The notes beneath the pieces are model-generated. The model had not been told where the DNA came from. It worked only from the letters and a program-made list of their open reading frames with translations, and searched no databases. This document shows positions 2,144 through 7,722 of a stretch of 8,144 nt of DNA, in pieces (within the stretch, counting starts at the first letter, position 1; the number at the start of each line of letters is the position of its first letter). This stretch comes from a virus (Duplodnaviria; Heunggongvirae; Uroviricota; Caudoviricetes), in the IMG/VR virus record IMGVR_UViG_2695420485_000006, one strand, 5' to 3'. A program made the translations under genes and the position numbers.

Positions 2144-3805
2144 TTATATGAAAAAAACCTCATACGCTTTCTTTTTCGGTTCCGGATTCAGGGACATCAG
2201 GGACACCGCATTGAAGAGCGCCATCAGCGGGTCAATTTTTCCCCGTCCGCTGGCCTGTTTGGTGATAAGAATGGCGTTACCTTTAGGCTCCACCCGGGCA
2301 TTGCCAACGCACCAGGCCATCAGTGGCTGACCACCATGCACCAGTACTCCCTCAGCCAGTTTGCGCTCGGTGGTTTTTATGGCCCCGCCCAGCTTCCAGC
2401 CCTGGCTTATCCCCACAACAATTCCGTCGGGGATCCCGGCTTCCGCCAGTGAATCCAGAATCTGCCCCACACCTGACGGGTCAATACCGATATGCTCCAG
2501 TAACTCAGCCTCATGAATACGACGCACATACTCCGCCACTTCCGCCGTGTCATCCCCGACCCGACGGACAATCGTCATGTCTCCACAGGCCACAAAATCC
2601 TGAAAACGGGATGCCTCACTCTTCCGTCTGACCACCGCGGTTTCATGCGCCCAGGCATGGCCCCAGCCCAGCCATTCGCGGGTTTCCCTGTCACGGCCAA
2701 TCACGTACATTCCCAGCAGATCATCCAGGCCCCCGCCGTCAATCCCCACCGTCACCACATCAGCGCGCTGCAGGATATCGTCCAGGCTGACGCGCCTGCC
2801 CTGCTGCTCCCAGAAATCCGCACCCACCCAGCGGTCAGAACGCAGGGCAAGACCAATTTCCACATTGGCATGTTTTGACATGAAGCCACGAAATGCTTCC
2901 TCACCAGCCTCCCGGGCTTTACGGTACTCCCGGTACAGAAAAGCCTCATCCACCGAATAACCGAGATTCGGGTTAACCATGGCGAGGTTTTCCATCAGCA
3001 GGTGAGCCCCGCTTTCCACCATTTCAGGAGGATGCTCAAAAATCACCGGCAGAAAGTGCGGATCATGAATTTTGCCGTCACGGACATCCCGGGCATACTG
3101 CAGTTTCTGTCTGAACACCCCGGCGGGCGGTTCATTCGACTGGGTGGTCGTATACACCACAAACCCTTCCGGACGGGAGGCAAGCCCGCCGATGGCTTCA
3201 CGTAGCATGTCTTCCGCCTTGTACTGCTTGCCAAACAGCCACAGTTCATCAATCAGTGTCCCCACGGACTTGATACCGGACACCGTATTCGGATCGGCTG
3301 CCACCACCTTCAGGGTGGTGTCCGTCACCCGATGGGTGATGGTCCGGATATGTGTCTGCACCTGACAGAGGTCATCCAGATCATCGTCCCGTCGTACCAT
3401 ATCCCTGGCAGGGTTGAAGGCGTTAGCCGCCACCTCCACGGTCGGGGCCAGAATCGTGTAACCCGCCGCCTGCCGCCAGTTCAGTAACAGTGCAGTCATC
3501 ATGATCCCCGCGGCCAGCGTGGACTTCGAGTTTTTCTTGGGGATAAGGATAAAAACTTCCTTGATATGGCGTACACCGGTCTGCGCATCGTAGGAGCCAA
3601 ACAGGGCCGCCACCAGGTCAAACACCCACGGTGCACAGGACTCCCCGAACGTAGGGCTACCAGGTGCATCCACAATCCGCAGTTGTTTAAAAATCGCCAG
3701 GGCATGTGCGGCCTCGTCCGGATAAATCGGATCCGGAATAATCGACAGCCCCTTTTGCAGGCGCTCTGCCCAGTCCGGGCAGGCTGTGCTCCATACAGGT
3801 ATCAT
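2144..3805 (-). CDS. Terminase large subunit (Terminase_1-like ATPase/nuclease)
   Basis: 553-aa ORF. ATG at 3805 overlaps the TerS stop (ATGA). Walker-A-like PKKNSKST around residues 89-96, acidic nuclease-type region VGIDGGGLDDLLG, and a C-terminus (KIDPLMALFNAV) typical of this terminase family, all from memory of the family pattern. Confidence 0.9.
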   Translation of the reverse strand: MIPVWSTACPDWAERLQKGLSIIPDPIYPDEAAHALAIFKQLRIVDAPGSPTFGESCAPWVFDLVAALFGSYDAQTGVRHIKEVFILIPKKNSKSTLAAGIMMTALLLNWRQAAGYTILAPTVEVAANAFNPARDMVRRDDDLDDLCQVQTHIRTITHRVTDTTLKVVAADPNTVSGIKSVGTLIDELWLFGKQYKAEDMLREAIGGLASRPEGFVVYTTTQSNEPPAGVFRQKLQYARDVRDGKIHDPHFLPVIFEHPPEMVESGAHLLMENLAMVNPNLGYSVDEAFLYREYRKAREAGEEAFRGFMSKHANVEIGLALRSDRWVGADFWEQQGRRVSLDDILQRADVVTVGIDGGGLDDLLGMYVIGRDRETREWLGWGHAWAHETAVVRRKSEASRFQDFVACGDMTIVRRVGDDTAEVAEYVRRIHEAELLEHIGIDPSGVGQILDSLAEAGIPDGIVVGISQGWKLGGAIKTTERKLAEGVLVHGGQPLMAWCVGNARVEPKGNAILITKQASGRGKIDPLMALFNAVSLMSLNPEPKKKAYEVFFI

Positions 3806-4365
3806 CCGTTGCCCTCATTATCGTTATTCACCACCAGTCGGGGGGGCGGTGGCACCGCAAAACGGTTAGCCGCTTTTTTCGCGGCATCACCTTTTGCCGA
3901 TTTTTTACCGGCATCGCCTTTTTTATGGTGCGTGAACTGCGCCAGACGCCAGGCCGCATCCAGTGCCAGTTTCGGATCAATGCAGAGGTTTTCCACCAGG
4001 ATCCGCCCCATGGCTTTCACCGGATCGGGAAGACCATCCTCCATATATTCAATACCAGGAGACATCACCGCGGACGGTGGCATCTCCGGATTGTTTTCGT
4101 CCGGCTGTGGTATTGCAGCCACCTCACGGCGACGGGGTTTATCCTCCTGCTCTGATTTTTTCTGCCGGTAAACAGGAACCTCATCCACCTCCACCGTCTC
4201 GCACTGTTTACGGGCTATAAACGCGAGCACCTCCGGATCTTTTGCCAGCTGCGAGCCTTTAACCCTGGCGGTCTTCGCCGAATAACCGGCGGCAATGGCT
4301 GACGCTGTTTTGTTTTTCCCGGACATGAGCGCCAGCGCAAATTTTCGTTTTTGCGTTGTCAGCAC
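3802..4365 (-). CDS. Terminase small subunit (P27/HK97-type)
   Basis: 187-aa ORF. GTG start at 4365 preceded by GGGAGGAGG. N-terminal KRKFALALMSGKNKTASAIAAGYSAKTARVKGSQLAKDPEVLAFI matches the conserved HTH region of phage terminase small subunits. Stop overlaps the TerL start. Confidence 0.85.
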   Translation of the reverse strand: MLTTQKRKFALALMSGKNKTASAIAAGYSAKTARVKGSQLAKDPEVLAFIARKQCETVEVDEVPVYRQKKSEQEDKPRRREVAAIPQPDENNPEMPPSAVMSPGIEYMEDGLPDPVKAMGRILVENLCIDPKLALDAAWRLAQFTHHKKGDAGKKSAKGDAAKKAANRFAVPPPPRLVVNNDNEGNG

Positions 4366-4437
4366 AGCCTCCTCCCGGGTCCAGAACGCACTCAGCCGGG
4401 TATGGTTCAGCCCATTTTTCCCGGCGTCTCATGCCGC

Positions 4438-4565
4438 AAATGTTAACTGCTGCCTGGTTAACATTTGCTGAAAAAGCCAGTTAACATTTTTTTCGCACAA
4501 CAAACTGAATAATAAAGATAAAAACCGCAAAAATGCCCGGGCAGCCAGTTAACATGTTAACTGCC
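4438..4565. repeat. Array of GTTAAC-core sites (putative TerS recognition elements, cosB-like)
   Basis: GTTAAC at 4442-4447, 4457-4462, 4480-4485, 4548-4553 and 4556-4561. The 12-mer GCCAGTTAACAT is repeated at 4476-4487 and 4544-4555. A perfect 18-bp palindrome CAGTTAACATGTTAACTG lies at 4546-4563. An A/T-rich block (about 4490-4530) sits between the sites. Confidence 0.5.
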
Positions 4566-4655: not shown

Positions 4656-5021
4656 TCACAGTCCGATGATATCGTCTGCCCTGCCATGACCTCCGGACAC
4701 CTCCGGCAGCGTCGGGTCCGGCATACCACTCGCCGTTTCACTGACTGACTTCTGGCGATGGCATTCGGTACAGAGCGTCCAGAGATTCGTCTCCTCATTA
4801 CCACCACCGAACTGAAGTGCAATGCGGTGATCGAGTTCACTGTCACAGAGGTCAACCACACGACCACAGAGACAGCACTGCCCGGCATCCCTGAGCCAGA
4901 TATGACGCTTGAGGGAAACACGTGCACTGCCACTGACACGACGCTGTTCCCCCTTCAGAATATTCACCCGTCGGGTGTTCAGAGTTTTGATTCTGCTCTG
5001 GAGTGTACGAAGCTCAGCCAT
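4656..5021 (-). CDS. HNH endonuclease (phage packaging-associated, HK97 gp74-like)
   Basis: 121-aa ORF with an HNH/zinc-finger core CCLCGR..DSELDHRIALQFGGGNEETNLWTLCTECHRQK. GGGGA Shine-Dalgarno 6 nt before the ATG. Sits immediately upstream of the cos-like region and terminase genes. Confidence 0.85.
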   Translation of the reverse strand: MAELRTLQSRIKTLNTRRVNILKGEQRRVSGSARVSLKRHIWLRDAGQCCLCGRVVDLCDSELDHRIALQFGGGNEETNLWTLCTECHRQKSVSETASGMPDPTLPEVSGGHGRADDIIGL

Positions 5022-5062
5022 GTAAAATCCCCGTCATATGGCAATCAGTAAAGGAAATAAAT

Positions 5063-5263
5063 ATGTCATCGAAAAACCGGACCCGCAGAACCACAACCCG
5101 CAATATCCGTTTCCCCAATCACATGATTGAACAGATCAACATCGCCCTTGAGCATAAAGGGTCCAGTAACTTTTCAGCGTGGGTTATTGAAGCCTGCAGG
5201 AGAAGGCTGGCAACAGATGCAACGCATCTGCGTACGGCCAGCATGACAAATAACGAGAAATGA
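5063..5263 (+). CDS. Small basic protein with predicted ribbon-helix-helix (Arc/MetJ/CopG-like) pattern; possibly YlcI/YnfO-like (DUF3950)
   Basis: 66-aa ORF. AGGAA Shine-Dalgarno 7 nt before the ATG at 5063; the track's longer ORF from 5003 lacks an SD and overlaps the HNH start. Sequence RNIRFPNHMIEQINIALEHKGSSNFSAWVIEACRRRL resembles the Arc beta-strand plus two-helix pattern. It is the only plus-strand gene in the window. Confidence 0.5.
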   Translation: MSSKNRTRRTTTRNIRFPNHMIEQINIALEHKGSSNFSAWVIEACRRRLATDATHLRTASMTNNEK

Positions 5264-5585
5264 ACGTTCGGTTTCTTCCACCATCGTACCGGACAGGCGA
5301 CTATGAGGGGACAACGCCGCGCTCCGTTAACGCGGTAAACCCCGGTGTGTATCGTTTTTGATTATCCCCGCACACTCGCGCAGAAGGAATTCCCCGTCGG
5401 GCTACGGTCATGGTTAATGCGGAAATACAGCGACGATACAGCGCATGATGTGTCAGGCTTGAATACCTTTATCCGTTAAAAGGGATATCAGTTAAGTTAT
5501 CCCGTGTAGGGTATAAGTCATTATCAAGCCCACCAGTAGATGGGCTTTGTAATGGAGAGCCGTTGTGAAAGTGGCTCTCAGACTG

Positions 5586-5789
5586 TCATTTTTTCCCTTT
5601 CTGTTTACCTGCCCACTGTTTTGCAATGTACAGGCAGTTATCGAAAATTCGGCCTTTTCTGCTGGCTTGTGAACAACGGCGGTAATGTTCCACCGCCATG
5701 TCAGCGCCAGTCATAGCCGCGTTTTGGTCGTATCCAAGCTTTATTAACTCGGTTGTTACATTTTTATGTATGAAATCAATCGGAGTCAT
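5586..5789 (-). CDS. Hypothetical small protein (67 aa), translationally coupled to the upstream Rha-like gene
   Basis: ATG at 5789 overlaps the stop of the 198-aa ORF (ATGA overlap at 5786-5789). Lys-rich C-terminus. No recognisable family. Confidence 0.45.
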   Translation of the reverse strand: MTPIDFIHKNVTTELIKLGYDQNAAMTGADMAVEHYRRCSQASRKGRIFDNCLYIAKQWAGKQKGKK

Positions 5790-6382
5790 GCTGGTTTACC
5801 ATCAGGGAAGTCCCCCATGTCACATAGCTTGAACTGAATAAGATCCTTCACAAGCTGCTCAGCCTTTTTAATGGCCTTCTTCTCTTTCTTCCGACGAGTC
5901 ATGAGAGCGCTACCTGCTTGACCGTGCATTTCAAATGAGAACTTCTCAGCAGCCGCGACACGGTTTTGCATTTCGCTGATTGCCATATCGGTCAGGCCAG
6001 AGAAATCGAGAAGGTTAATCTCCTTCCCACCCTCAAGCTCAGTCATGTGGTCATACACCTGCGCCTGAAGCTCATAGCTGTAGCTCATTGCCATGAGGCA
6101 AGCTTCACGCTTGGGAAAATTGCAAATATCCCTCTCCACAACACCACCTGTTCCGTTGATATAGGTATCAGTTGCAAAAAATTTTGCAGCTGCATCCCCG
6201 AGGACCTTGGGTACTTTCTTCATGAAACTGCGGTGTTCGAGTTTGCGATATTTCTTACAGGGGAACGCAAGCCCCTCCGCCTCCGCTTTGGATTTCCGAT
6301 CAGCATTAATGTAATCCACCATCTCAAGACTGCTCATGGTCGGGTATTCGCCAGAAGGAAGAACGGTTAATGATTTGTTCAT
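5786..6382 (-). CDS. Putative phage regulatory protein, Rha-like (antirepressor-type); assignment tentative
   Basis: 198-aa ORF. AGGAA Shine-Dalgarno 9 nt before the ATG at 6382. N-terminal half (TMSSLEMVDYIN ... LEHRSFMKKV ... EACLMAMSYSYELQAQVYDHMTELE) resembles the Rha pattern (TMSSxEIAxxTGKxHxNVMRDI ... LLxMGFTGxxAxxFKxxYIxAFNxME), but with a ~15-aa insertion. Remembered consensus only. Confidence 0.55.
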   Translation of the reverse strand: MNKSLTVLPSGEYPTMSSLEMVDYINADRKSKAEAEGLAFPCKKYRKLEHRSFMKKVPKVLGDAAAKFFATDTYINGTGGVVERDICNFPKREACLMAMSYSYELQAQVYDHMTELEGGKEINLLDFSGLTDMAISEMQNRVAAAEKFSFEMHGQAGSALMTRRKKEKKAIKKAEQLVKDLIQFKLCDMGDFPDGKPA

Positions 6383-6527
6383 GTCGGTATTTCCTTTAGA
6401 AAGTTGAGCCTGTTCGCACAGAAAAACCGTCCCCGAGAGGTCCTCACCTATACGGCAGTTCTCAGGCTCAGCTTTCTGAAAGACTCGGGATTGTTACGCG
6501 CTGCGATACGCTGTGAAATTCAGATGT

Positions 6528-6553
6528 AAAAAAAAGCCCCGCATCGCGAGGCT
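6528..6553 (-). terminator. Rho-independent terminator downstream of Rz/Rz1
   Basis: Minus-strand RNA reads AGCCUCGC-GAU-GCGGGGCU (8-bp stem, one G-U pair) followed by a run of 7-8 U; starts about 30 nt after the Rz stop. Confidence 0.6.
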
Positions 6554-6584
6554 CATTAAATTGACTTTGTGATTTGCAAAAAAA

Positions 6585-7022
6585 TTATTTCAGGCATTGC
6601 GTCCTGATGTATTCCTGCAGGTAGTTAACCTGCGCGGTTATCTTGTCGATTCCACCTCGGAGACGGTAATAATTGAGTTCAGCATCTGCTGTAAGTCCTG
6701 GGCTTTCTCCATCGCCCATGCTGCTGGCTCCGGTCGTTGACTTTGCACAGGTGGCGGAGACTTGCAGGCGCTTACGCCCAGCAGAAACATCAGCACGGAG
6801 ACTTTCGATAGTCGCATTAGCATCAGCAAGCTCCTTTGTGTATCTGGCGTCAAGTTCTGCTACATCACGTTGCCGCTTCTGCATATCAGCGATGATGGAT
6901 GTGGCTCTATCGCGCTGCTCTTTGTAGGCGATGGCGTTATCACGGTAATGATTAACAGCCCATGAAAGGCAGACGATGAGGCAGATGACCAGAACGTAGA
7001 TAATCGCGGTTACTCTGCTCAT
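6585..7022 (-). CDS. Rz: Rz-type i-spanin (inner-membrane spanin subunit)
   Basis: N-terminal transmembrane helix ([20 protein letters not shown]) followed by a charged coiled-coil periplasmic domain. ATG at 7022 overlaps the endolysin stop (ATGA); the track's alternative start at 7034 adds MGAT. Contains Rz1 embedded in the +1 frame. Confidence 0.8.
6638..6823 (-). CDS. Rz1: Rz1-type o-spanin (outer-membrane lipoprotein), embedded within Rz in another frame
   Basis: Embedded ORF with lipoprotein signal peptide and lipobox ([20 protein letters not shown]) and a short proline-rich mature part ([37 protein letters not shown]), resembling lambda Rz1 from memory. Exact start is uncertain: M at 6823 or 6817; the track ORF begins at 6853. 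Confidence 0.7.
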
Positions 7023-7516
7023 TGTTGCCCCCACAAACAGACTTCACGCTCAATCTCACGGCGAGTCATCAGCCCTTTCCATTGCTTACCGCCAGCGTAT
7101 GTCCAGCGCCGTAGCTGATCACATGCGCTTTTGATATCGCCCTGGTTTATTTTGCGAAGAAGCGTCGATGTTCTGAAATTGCCAGCGCCCACGTTGTAAA
7201 CGAACGAGTAAAGAGCGCCGCGCGTTGTTTCCGGTATATCGACTTTGATGTACGGGTTTATTTGTCTGGCGACCGTGGCAAGGTCTTTATTCAGGAGGGC
7301 TTTGCATTCTGCTTCGGTATACGTTTTACCGGGCATGATGTCTTTTCCGGTGTGTCCATGACATACAGTCCATACGCCAACGATATCTTCGTATGGTATG
7401 TAGCTGACACCTTCCAGGCCATCGTCACCACTCGGACCAGTGATGAGCACAGACGCTATGGCAACAGCCCCACCACCAATAGCAGCAGCAACGGCTTTTC
7501 GTAATGATGGAGGCAT
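7019..7516 (-). CDS. R: SAR endolysin (phage lysozyme, T4-lysozyme/GH24 family, R21-like)
   Basis: 165-aa ORF. N-terminal Gly/Ala-rich weakly hydrophobic signal-anchor-release segment ([21 protein letters not shown]) followed by a lysozyme catalytic region ([23 protein letters not shown]). Start overlaps the holin stop (TAATG). Confidence 0.9.
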
Positions 7517-7722
7517 TATTCACCTCTTGCAGCCTTGCGCTTATCTTCTTTAATCTTGAAATAAAGGTTTGTCAGATACGTCAGCAGGCCAAACAGCAGA
7601 CTCCCCAGCACACCTATTGCCACCCACTGGGACGGAGAGACTTTGTCCAGCAGCTGCAGTAACCAGTATCCCGTCCCCACCGCTGACGTGGTGTATGACA
7701 CACCTGTTGTGATTTTTTCCAT
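7516..7722 (-). CDS. S: Class II holin / pinholin (phage 21 S21-like)
   Basis: 68-aa ORF with two transmembrane segments and a charged C-terminus ([13 protein letters not shown]). Near-identical in pattern to phage 21 S21 as I remember it (…[14 protein letters not shown]…[22 protein letters not shown]). GGAGA Shine-Dalgarno ~10 nt upstream. Confidence 0.9.

Follow-up and report, generated by a model that had tools for sequence, protein, structure and literature searches.

The rha gene was mapped in phages phi80 and P22 as long ago as the 1980s and 1990s, and both its function and its control have remained obscure. In both phages the gene order is Rz, terminator, rha, and the phi80 record annotates rha with 'DNA synthesis inhibition in IHF- hosts'. 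It has been said that Rha blocks phage growth in IHF-defective hosts (PMC4936722), a phenotype that is known for phi80 and P22 only. A second system of interest is Gifsy-1 IsrK-orf45-anrP, in which the ribosome-binding site of an antirepressor-like protein is locked in a stable leader and translation is coupled through an ATGA overlap (PMC4825925); P1 c4-icd-ant and P4 CI/seqA-eta are related systems, and the Bro-N network consists of domain-shuffling, DNA-interactive phage proteins (PMC10111431). In this study, we analysed a cassette of two open reading frames (ORFs) of 198 and 67 aa (5786-6382 and 5586-5789, both with an ATG start) in an 8,144-nucleotide stretch of viral DNA (IMG/VR record IMGVR_UViG_2695420485_000006), referred to here as the window; all features are on the minus strand unless stated otherwise. 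The window is part of a lambdoid E. coli prophage, being 100% identical to one with a full lambdoid gene order.

We suggest, with a probability of roughly 0.55, that the pair is a rha-slot cassette of this prophage, a dispensable and exchangeable late-operon module between Rz and the packaging genes. It would be a variant of the known rha/Bro-network accessory genes, with a leader that gates translation and a partner linked to the C-terminal domain of the first product, neither of which had been recorded previously. The preliminary description of this DNA, which was confined to 5586-6382, had overlooked the classical rha slot of P22 and phi80, the tracking of the C-domain by the small ORF, and the leader that sequesters the ribosome-binding site just outside that interval. 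According to the model that we favour, transcripts of the cassette come from Q-modified RNA polymerase that has passed the Rz terminator, a read-through that we infer because no promoter above chance precedes the pair. The leader pairs an anti-Shine-Dalgarno (anti-SD) sequence with the SD sequence of the first gene and would hold translation down as long as the hairpin is neither opened nor cleaved. The first product would be a Bro/Rha-network DNA-binding protein in which a winged-helix N-domain precedes a helical C-domain of the phi80 Rha type, and the 67-aa protein would be made by termination-reinitiation at the ATGA overlap, a coupling that is suggested because no SD is evident before its start codon. 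The small protein may act together with the C-domain, because it accompanies this domain in proteins with a Rha-like N-domain and in those with Bro-N alike. Most likely the pair would interfere with DNA replication or phage growth during lytic development, as in the Rha phenotype; such a function is suggested because position, leader and C-domain are common to the cassette and phi80 rha. The lysogen probably does not express the pair.

The rha slot and its occupants

The cassette shares with phi80 and P22 rha the slot directly after Rz/Rz1 and the terminator, the strand, the late operon and the leader, and with phi80 Rha also a homologous C-terminal region. Its first gene thus has the location typical of the Rha family. 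However, the N-domain belongs to a divergent subfamily that fails the Phage_pRha model and is unlike that of P22 Rha, whose C-domain is of another type, ORF11CD3. P22 also has no member of the small-ORF family and carries the unrelated orf25, orf80 and orf59c instead. Shiga-toxin (Stx) phages and HK620 (p38/p39) resemble the window in the slot, in the leader motif, in having two genes with a 4-base overlap and in flanking sequence that is 97-98% identical, but both of their proteins are unrelated to ours: the first is KilA-N plus ORF11CD3, and the 85-aa partner belongs to PHROG 875 and has no similarity to the 67-aa protein.

Exchange, or presence and absence, between otherwise similar phages is what is expected of a moron, and the cassette shows it. 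Against Stx2 phage 1717, blastn identity stops at 6531 and restarts at 5555, which delimits an exchangeable mosaic module (5556-6530) of leader, two ORFs and a hairpin; in this phage the same place holds a leader of its own, a KilA-N/ORF11CD3 gene and a coupled 85-aa ORF. The upstream edge is an intrinsic terminator after Rz/Rz1 (6534-6554), conserved in P22, phi80 and Stx phages. Its minus-strand stem (6554-6534) has nine pairs, six of them G-C, and is followed by the T-run TTTTTTAC, in agreement with the strong terminator that had been placed at 6528-6553 as the end of the lysis cassette. The downstream edge, located by folding and by the blastn breakpoint, is a hairpin (5555-5579) directly 3' of the 67-aa stop codon. 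Folding of 5480-5600 gives a z of -6.7, with two very stable minus-strand hairpins at 5519-5579, neither of which has a U-tract; the first lies inside the module and the second in a flank 98% identical to Stx phages. These hairpins might stabilize the RNA or, facing the plus-strand ylcI gene, terminate transcription in both directions. At the same slot, other phages carry KilA-N with an 85-aa ORF, canonical Rha or Bro-N fusions, and one strain (H43) a GIY-YIG nuclease, which bears out the earlier view of an accessory slot and shows that it is variable.

Discrete module edges and frequently exchanged occupants, among them the nuclease of H43, could also suit a selfish, self-mobilizing cassette akin to homing elements, in which the DNA-binding protein serves only cassette spread, and domains of the Bro network are related to DNA-binding modules of homing nucleases (PMC10111431). 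We regard this explanation as very improbable, since neither protein contains a nuclease domain, purifying selection acts on both genes in many genera, and homologous recombination in the conserved flanks can by itself explain the exchange.

The preliminary description had called the locus a classic moron slot and, while asserting no defence function, had pointed to lysogenic conversion, anti-defence and superinfection exclusion as functions that tend to reside in such slots. A moron expressed from the prophage, with superinfection exclusion, anti-phage defence, anti-defence or lysogenic conversion as its role, would fit the variable slot, the terminator that isolates the cassette from the lysis genes and the lower GC content. 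The 198-aa gene has a GC content of 0.479 and the 67-aa gene one of 0.436, compared with 0.49-0.51 for Rz, lysozyme and holin and 0.55-0.59 for HNH, TerS, TerL and the capsid gene, so that the pair lies clearly below the structural genes, as had been judged by eye, and only slightly below the lysis genes. In addition, phi80 Rha inhibits the growth of lambdoid phages under some conditions, much like an exclusion activity, and BstA, reported to be a prophage defence protein with a KilA-N domain, provides a precedent for defence by proteins with such a domain (PMC8585504). Nevertheless, we consider this explanation unlikely. No promoter signal above that of shuffled sequences was found before the pair: the only promoter-like site, at 6517-6490, matches at 9 of 12 positions, and three sites in all were seen where 2.2 were expected. 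Together with hairpins that lack a U-tract, this lends no support to a strictly defined moron. Strand and position place the gene in the late operon, an SD-sequestering leader speaks for repression rather than for constitutive expression, and no PADLOC-DB 2.0 model matches either protein at E<=0.1. Nothing that we found points to a function in defence or to expression in the lysogen, and the defence and conversion roles thus gained no support. The IHF consensus WATCAANNNNTTR has no match in the window.

A structured leader RNA before the first gene

Comparison of the sequence upstream of the first ORF across loci revealed a conserved, covarying structured leader RNA, which may act on the translation of this ORF. 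In the window, the leader (92 nucleotides, 6392-6483; covariance-model match 6377-6500) has four helices. P0 pairs the anti-SD at 6479-6483 with the SD AAGGA at 6392-6396, P1 joins 6463-6470 with 6405-6412 (GAGCCUG with CAGGCUC), P2 joins 6452-6462 with 6420-6430, and P3 joins 6446-6449 with 6438-6441. When 32 divergent leaders were each folded alone, most gave a common long hairpin. In the consensus, the outer helix is formed by (C/U)CUUU and the SD AAAGG and is followed by helices P0b and P1; inside P1 there is an internal loop with conserved UGAG and CUGUGCGAA, and then P2 and a small apical hairpin. The folding z against dinucleotide shuffles has a median of -4.3 over the leaders and is -2.9 for the 95-nucleotide core in the window; only this core is significant, the whole 161-nucleotide leader folded as one piece giving a z of -1.3.

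In the raw MAFFT alignment the outer helices were out of register, so that RNAalifold recovered P2 alone; the covariance model, R1, was built on a hand-specified structure. In the alignment fitted to this model, paired cells amount to 84.7%, as against 69.3% in shuffles (none of 500 shuffles reaches this value), both sides have changed in 24 of the 32 pairs (again 0/500), and the covariation score is 0.48, compared with 0.09-0.12 when the partners are slid. About 10% of the paired cells are G-U on the sense strand, which fits an RNA of that strand.

R1 gives 100.8 bits for the phi80 rha leader (L168:2488-2609), 91.9 bits for that of P22 rha (L167:2027-2150) and 89.6 bits for the leader of the KilA-N gene in Stx2 phage 1717 (L002:4032-4155), and it also finds the leader before Bro-N fusions, further KilA-N genes and a TerB-like gene. 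The leader thus sits before rha-slot cassettes including those of P22 and phi80, which had not been recorded previously; our literature searches found no description of it. By blastn alone it turns up in 141 phage records as well as in at least 895 of 5426 complete E. coli genomes, for the most part without annotation. The motif is useful for marking cassette edges when prophages are annotated. A locus can hold up to three copies (L049:2651-2774, 2969-3092 and 4340-4463; L008:2998-3119 and 3314-3437; L052:1690-1806 and 2909-3031; and, in phi80, L168:4082-4186). Tandem copies each head a different cassette, and those copies that are not followed by an ORF of at least 30 aa look like remnants of lost cassettes.

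The annotated starts of P22 rha (201 aa) and phi80 rha (184 aa) fall within the 3' arm of the leader hairpin. Judged by the SD and ATG of the motif, P22 rha would start 23 codons further downstream (L167:2145 rather than 2076) and encode 178 aa, and phi80 rha would start 12 codons further downstream (L168:2604 rather than 2568) and encode 172 aa. It is therefore likely, as far as the motif in the sequence can tell, that the leader corrects the start codons of both genes.

Long, nearly perfect helices are typical substrates of RNase III. Such helices are present here, and the leader repeats might therefore be an RNase III processing site that affects mRNA stability, or else a transcription attenuator or a DNA recombination or exchange site, rather than a translational gate. 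Such roles would also suit a U-rich run after P2 in the window and a motif that lies at a mosaic boundary, in up to three copies of which some lack an ORF. Compensatory changes and frequent sense-strand G-U pairs, however, favour RNA over DNA; the U-run is not conserved, as seen for instance in CCCAUAUCU of L109; and the outermost helix always takes in the SD at a fixed distance from the ATG. We therefore hold a leader without a gating role to be improbable, more so than the moron discussed above, and note that RNase III processing and a translational gate are compatible with each other.

The closest described arrangement is that of IsrK-orf45-anrP, with which the cassette shares an antirepressor-like prophage protein, an SD-sequestering leader and ATGA coupling. 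The RNA is nevertheless a different one: neither the isrK nor the C4 Rfam model matches the window (E<=0.1) or appears among the weak matches to the leader region (E<=10), the regulator is followed and not preceded by the small ORF, and the cassette follows the lysis genes instead of adjoining Q. No trans-RNA complementary to the leader was found in 41.5 kb of the prophage by blastn-short, which returned only the leader's own arms and chance 9-11-mers. The Gifsy-1 system shows that translationally locked leaders before antirepressor-like prophage proteins exist and matter (PMC4825925). Nor does any other Rfam family reach E<=0.1 in the window; up to E<=10, the leader region gives unrelated sub-threshold matches only, and an isrJ-like match over the Rz terminator (18.5 bits, cut-off 37) was dismissed as chance.

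The two proteins and their linkage

The 198-aa ORF, annotated in RefSeq as a 'hypothetical protein' (WP_052909971.1), has 2108 database relatives across Enterobacterales, many of them named 'Rha family transcriptional regulator', and is therefore a real gene. We conclude that its product combines a divergent Rha-like N-terminal domain, predicted to be a winged helix (residues ~16-117, 6032-6337), with a helical C-terminal domain of the phi80-Rha type (residues ~118-198, 5789-6031). A direct family assignment failed, as Pfam and NCBIfam give nothing for the window protein, and a PDB profile search returned chance-level matches only. Among 40 close homologues (62-89% identical), however, 23 match Phage_pRha (PF09669), with a best E of 4.2e-6; an Erwinia homologue reaches 20.4 bits against a cut-off of 29.9. 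In the alignment, the beta-hairpin segment of the window protein is 3-4 residues longer than in homologues with a precomputed PF09669 hit. This is in keeping with the partial Rha-like signature with an insertion that had been noticed before. The AlphaFold model has a mean pLDDT (the predicted confidence score) of 73, rising to 82-90 over residues 21-110, and shows helices, a beta-hairpin, more helices and finally two long C-terminal helices (128-153 and 159-186).

The C-domain also connects the protein to Rha. Residues 121-169 of phi80 Rha align with residues 137-186 of the window protein (BLASTP, 36% identity over 50 residues, E 6e-6); phi80 Rha consists of Phage_pRha plus the window-type C-domain, compared with Phage_pRha plus ORF11CD3 in P22 Rha. 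The same C-domain follows a Pfam-confirmed Bro-N domain in L033, L046 and L049 (29.9-33.5 bits, cut-off 25.6) and, by sequence, a Bro-N domain in L008, L050 and L054, the C-domains of the Rha-like and Bro-N type proteins being about 34-39% identical. The Bro-N network reportedly goes back to Iyer et al. in 2002, and the swapping of Rha-like and Bro-N N-domains on a constant C-domain is in line with it, except that the C-domain of the window protein has no Pfam model: none was matched, including ORF11CD3 (PF10549), ANT, KilAC and P22AR. Its likeness to ORF11CD3 is only suggestive, with hhalign (A3 against A8) giving a probability of 7.7% and an E of 0.0045 and aligning only the terminal Q-x-x-I-P-x-L motif. 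A profile search with the C-domain alone returned truncated proteins only and did not inform these architectures.

Residues 5-141 match Ant and regulator families in PHROGs (E ~5e-11), the best of which is 'anti-repressor Ant', and phage records name relatives of the N-domain anti-repressor. The first product could therefore be an Ant/AnrP-type antirepressor that inactivates the repressors of co-resident or competing prophages, leading to cross-induction, with the small protein as its modulator. Gifsy-1, in which a silent leader gates an antirepressor-like protein via a coupled ORF, would be the precedent (PMC4825925). These names are, however, annotation transfers, the C-domain is neither ANT, KilAC nor P22AR, the same prophage already has antirepressor-type proteins with KilAC and P22AR-C in its nin region, and a position in the late operon would be an odd time for repressor inactivation. 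An antirepressor role therefore appears unlikely to us.

At the junction of the two ORFs, GCATGACT (GGT AAA CCA GCA TGA CTC CG), the TGA stop of the first ORF and the ATG of the second lie in a 4-base overlap, and the ORF list agrees with this overlap, as the preliminary description had read it. That description had assigned no family to the second product, and apart from PHROG 4439 (function unknown) none was found, there being no match in Pfam or NCBIfam. Nor does the small protein have a significant PDB neighbour by fold or sequence. The 67-aa protein is modelled as a three-helix bundle (mean pLDDT 86). Its family comprises 31 close clusters and, in a profile search of 1.84 billion proteins, 103 representatives, nearly all of them stand-alone proteins of 50-135 aa; a handful of long repetitive proteins (428-1495 aa) are matched in 5-8 stretches. 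The median pairwise dN/dS of 0.12 indicates purifying selection and thus a real gene. An RMF/CrpP-like identity was rejected (2 of 64 family members match Pfam RMF, best E 0.063), as was a likeness of the profile (A4) to a synthetic PPR protein (summed E 0.0018, with no single stretch significant), which is probably due to composition or to a convergent helical-hairpin composition. No homology was found between the 67-aa protein and P22 orf80 or the 85-aa partner of Stx phages.

Of the close relatives (>=57% identity) in 83 loci found via the small ORF, nearly all adjoin an ORF of ~190-220 aa with the C-domain, mostly with a 4-base overlap, and the N-domain of this upstream ORF is Rha-like or Pfam-confirmed Bro-N, with the same C-domain in both. 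In the reverse search, a member of the small family lies directly downstream in 57 of the 79 loci of the 198-aa family (23 of 33 clusters at 90% identity), and the remaining 22 have no such member in any frame. Since the linkage holds whichever N-domain is present and some loci lack the partner, the small protein tracks the C-domain and not the DNA-binding domain, and it is optional.

Several observations weigh against the rha-slot reading, the partnerless loci among them. The rha gene of phi80 itself lacks a small partner gene, and phi80 has an opposite-strand gene instead. A small protein 84% identical to that of the window can stand beside a C-domain region that is only 34% identical, and the converse also occurs; small protein and C-domain thus recombine independently, which weakens the case for a tight, co-evolving complex. 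The window protein gives no match to Phage_pRha even at E<=1, so that, with homologues that do match, it is Rha-like by transitive homology only, and hhalign finds no similarity between its N-domain and P22 Rha. Finally, the covariation counts for the leader are biased, as the alignment was fitted to the model, while the single-sequence folds are independent of it.

Distant relatives and neighbouring genes

Distant relatives of the small protein are found in early regions, after cII-like, RusA or RdgC genes (e.g. L010, L012, L060, L068 and L069). A tail with a median length of 32.5 residues and an L[FL] end is present in 20 of 97 family representatives, 12 of which have Q at position -5 or -6, and in the early-region relatives (P0152-P0240) a tail of ~30 residues ends in QxxLF or QxxLL. 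The motif that binds the beta sliding clamp is QL[SD]LF, which these tails resemble. A clamp-binding pentapeptide was not found in the 67-aa protein of the window, which ends in WAGKQKGKK and has no such tail.

A wider reading, which we think is rather unlikely to hold as a whole, would join three proposals. The leader would be a new class of cis-regulatory RNA that gates Bro-network cassettes after the lysis genes of lambdoid phages, P22, phi80 and the Stx phages included; the signal to which it responds would be a trans factor, be it RNase III, a small RNA, temperature or the cassette's own protein; and the target of the phi80-type C-domain and the 67-aa protein would be the host replisome, as the QxxLF tails of the early-region relatives might hint. 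If this is true, the Rha phenotype, a 40-year-old observation that DNA synthesis is arrested in hosts deficient in IHF, would have a molecular explanation. Shiga-toxin phages carry related but unstudied genes in the same slot. The shared leader, the partner that tracks the C-domain and the clamp-like tails turn a vaguely defined accessory slot into hypotheses that can be tested.

According to the ORF list, the minus strand carries every substantial gene of the window. The upstream flank of the cassette consists of holin (7516-7722), lysozyme (7019-7516) and Rz with embedded Rz1 (6585-7034), and the downstream flank of a YlcI/YnfO (DUF3950) gene (5003-5263, plus strand) and HNH (4656-5021), beyond which lie TerS, TerL and a protease-capsid fusion. 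The YlcI/YnfO gene is on the strand opposite to all other genes, and its start overlaps that of HNH (5003-5021); it resembles a moron with transcription of its own more closely than the cassette pair does. In RefSeq, the portal gene of the source prophage is frameshifted (L001:12311-14733), so that this prophage may be defective. The head gene is a single ORF of 645 aa (143-2080), a 'phage major capsid protein' in RefSeq, and the N-terminal part of its product looks like a prohead protease.

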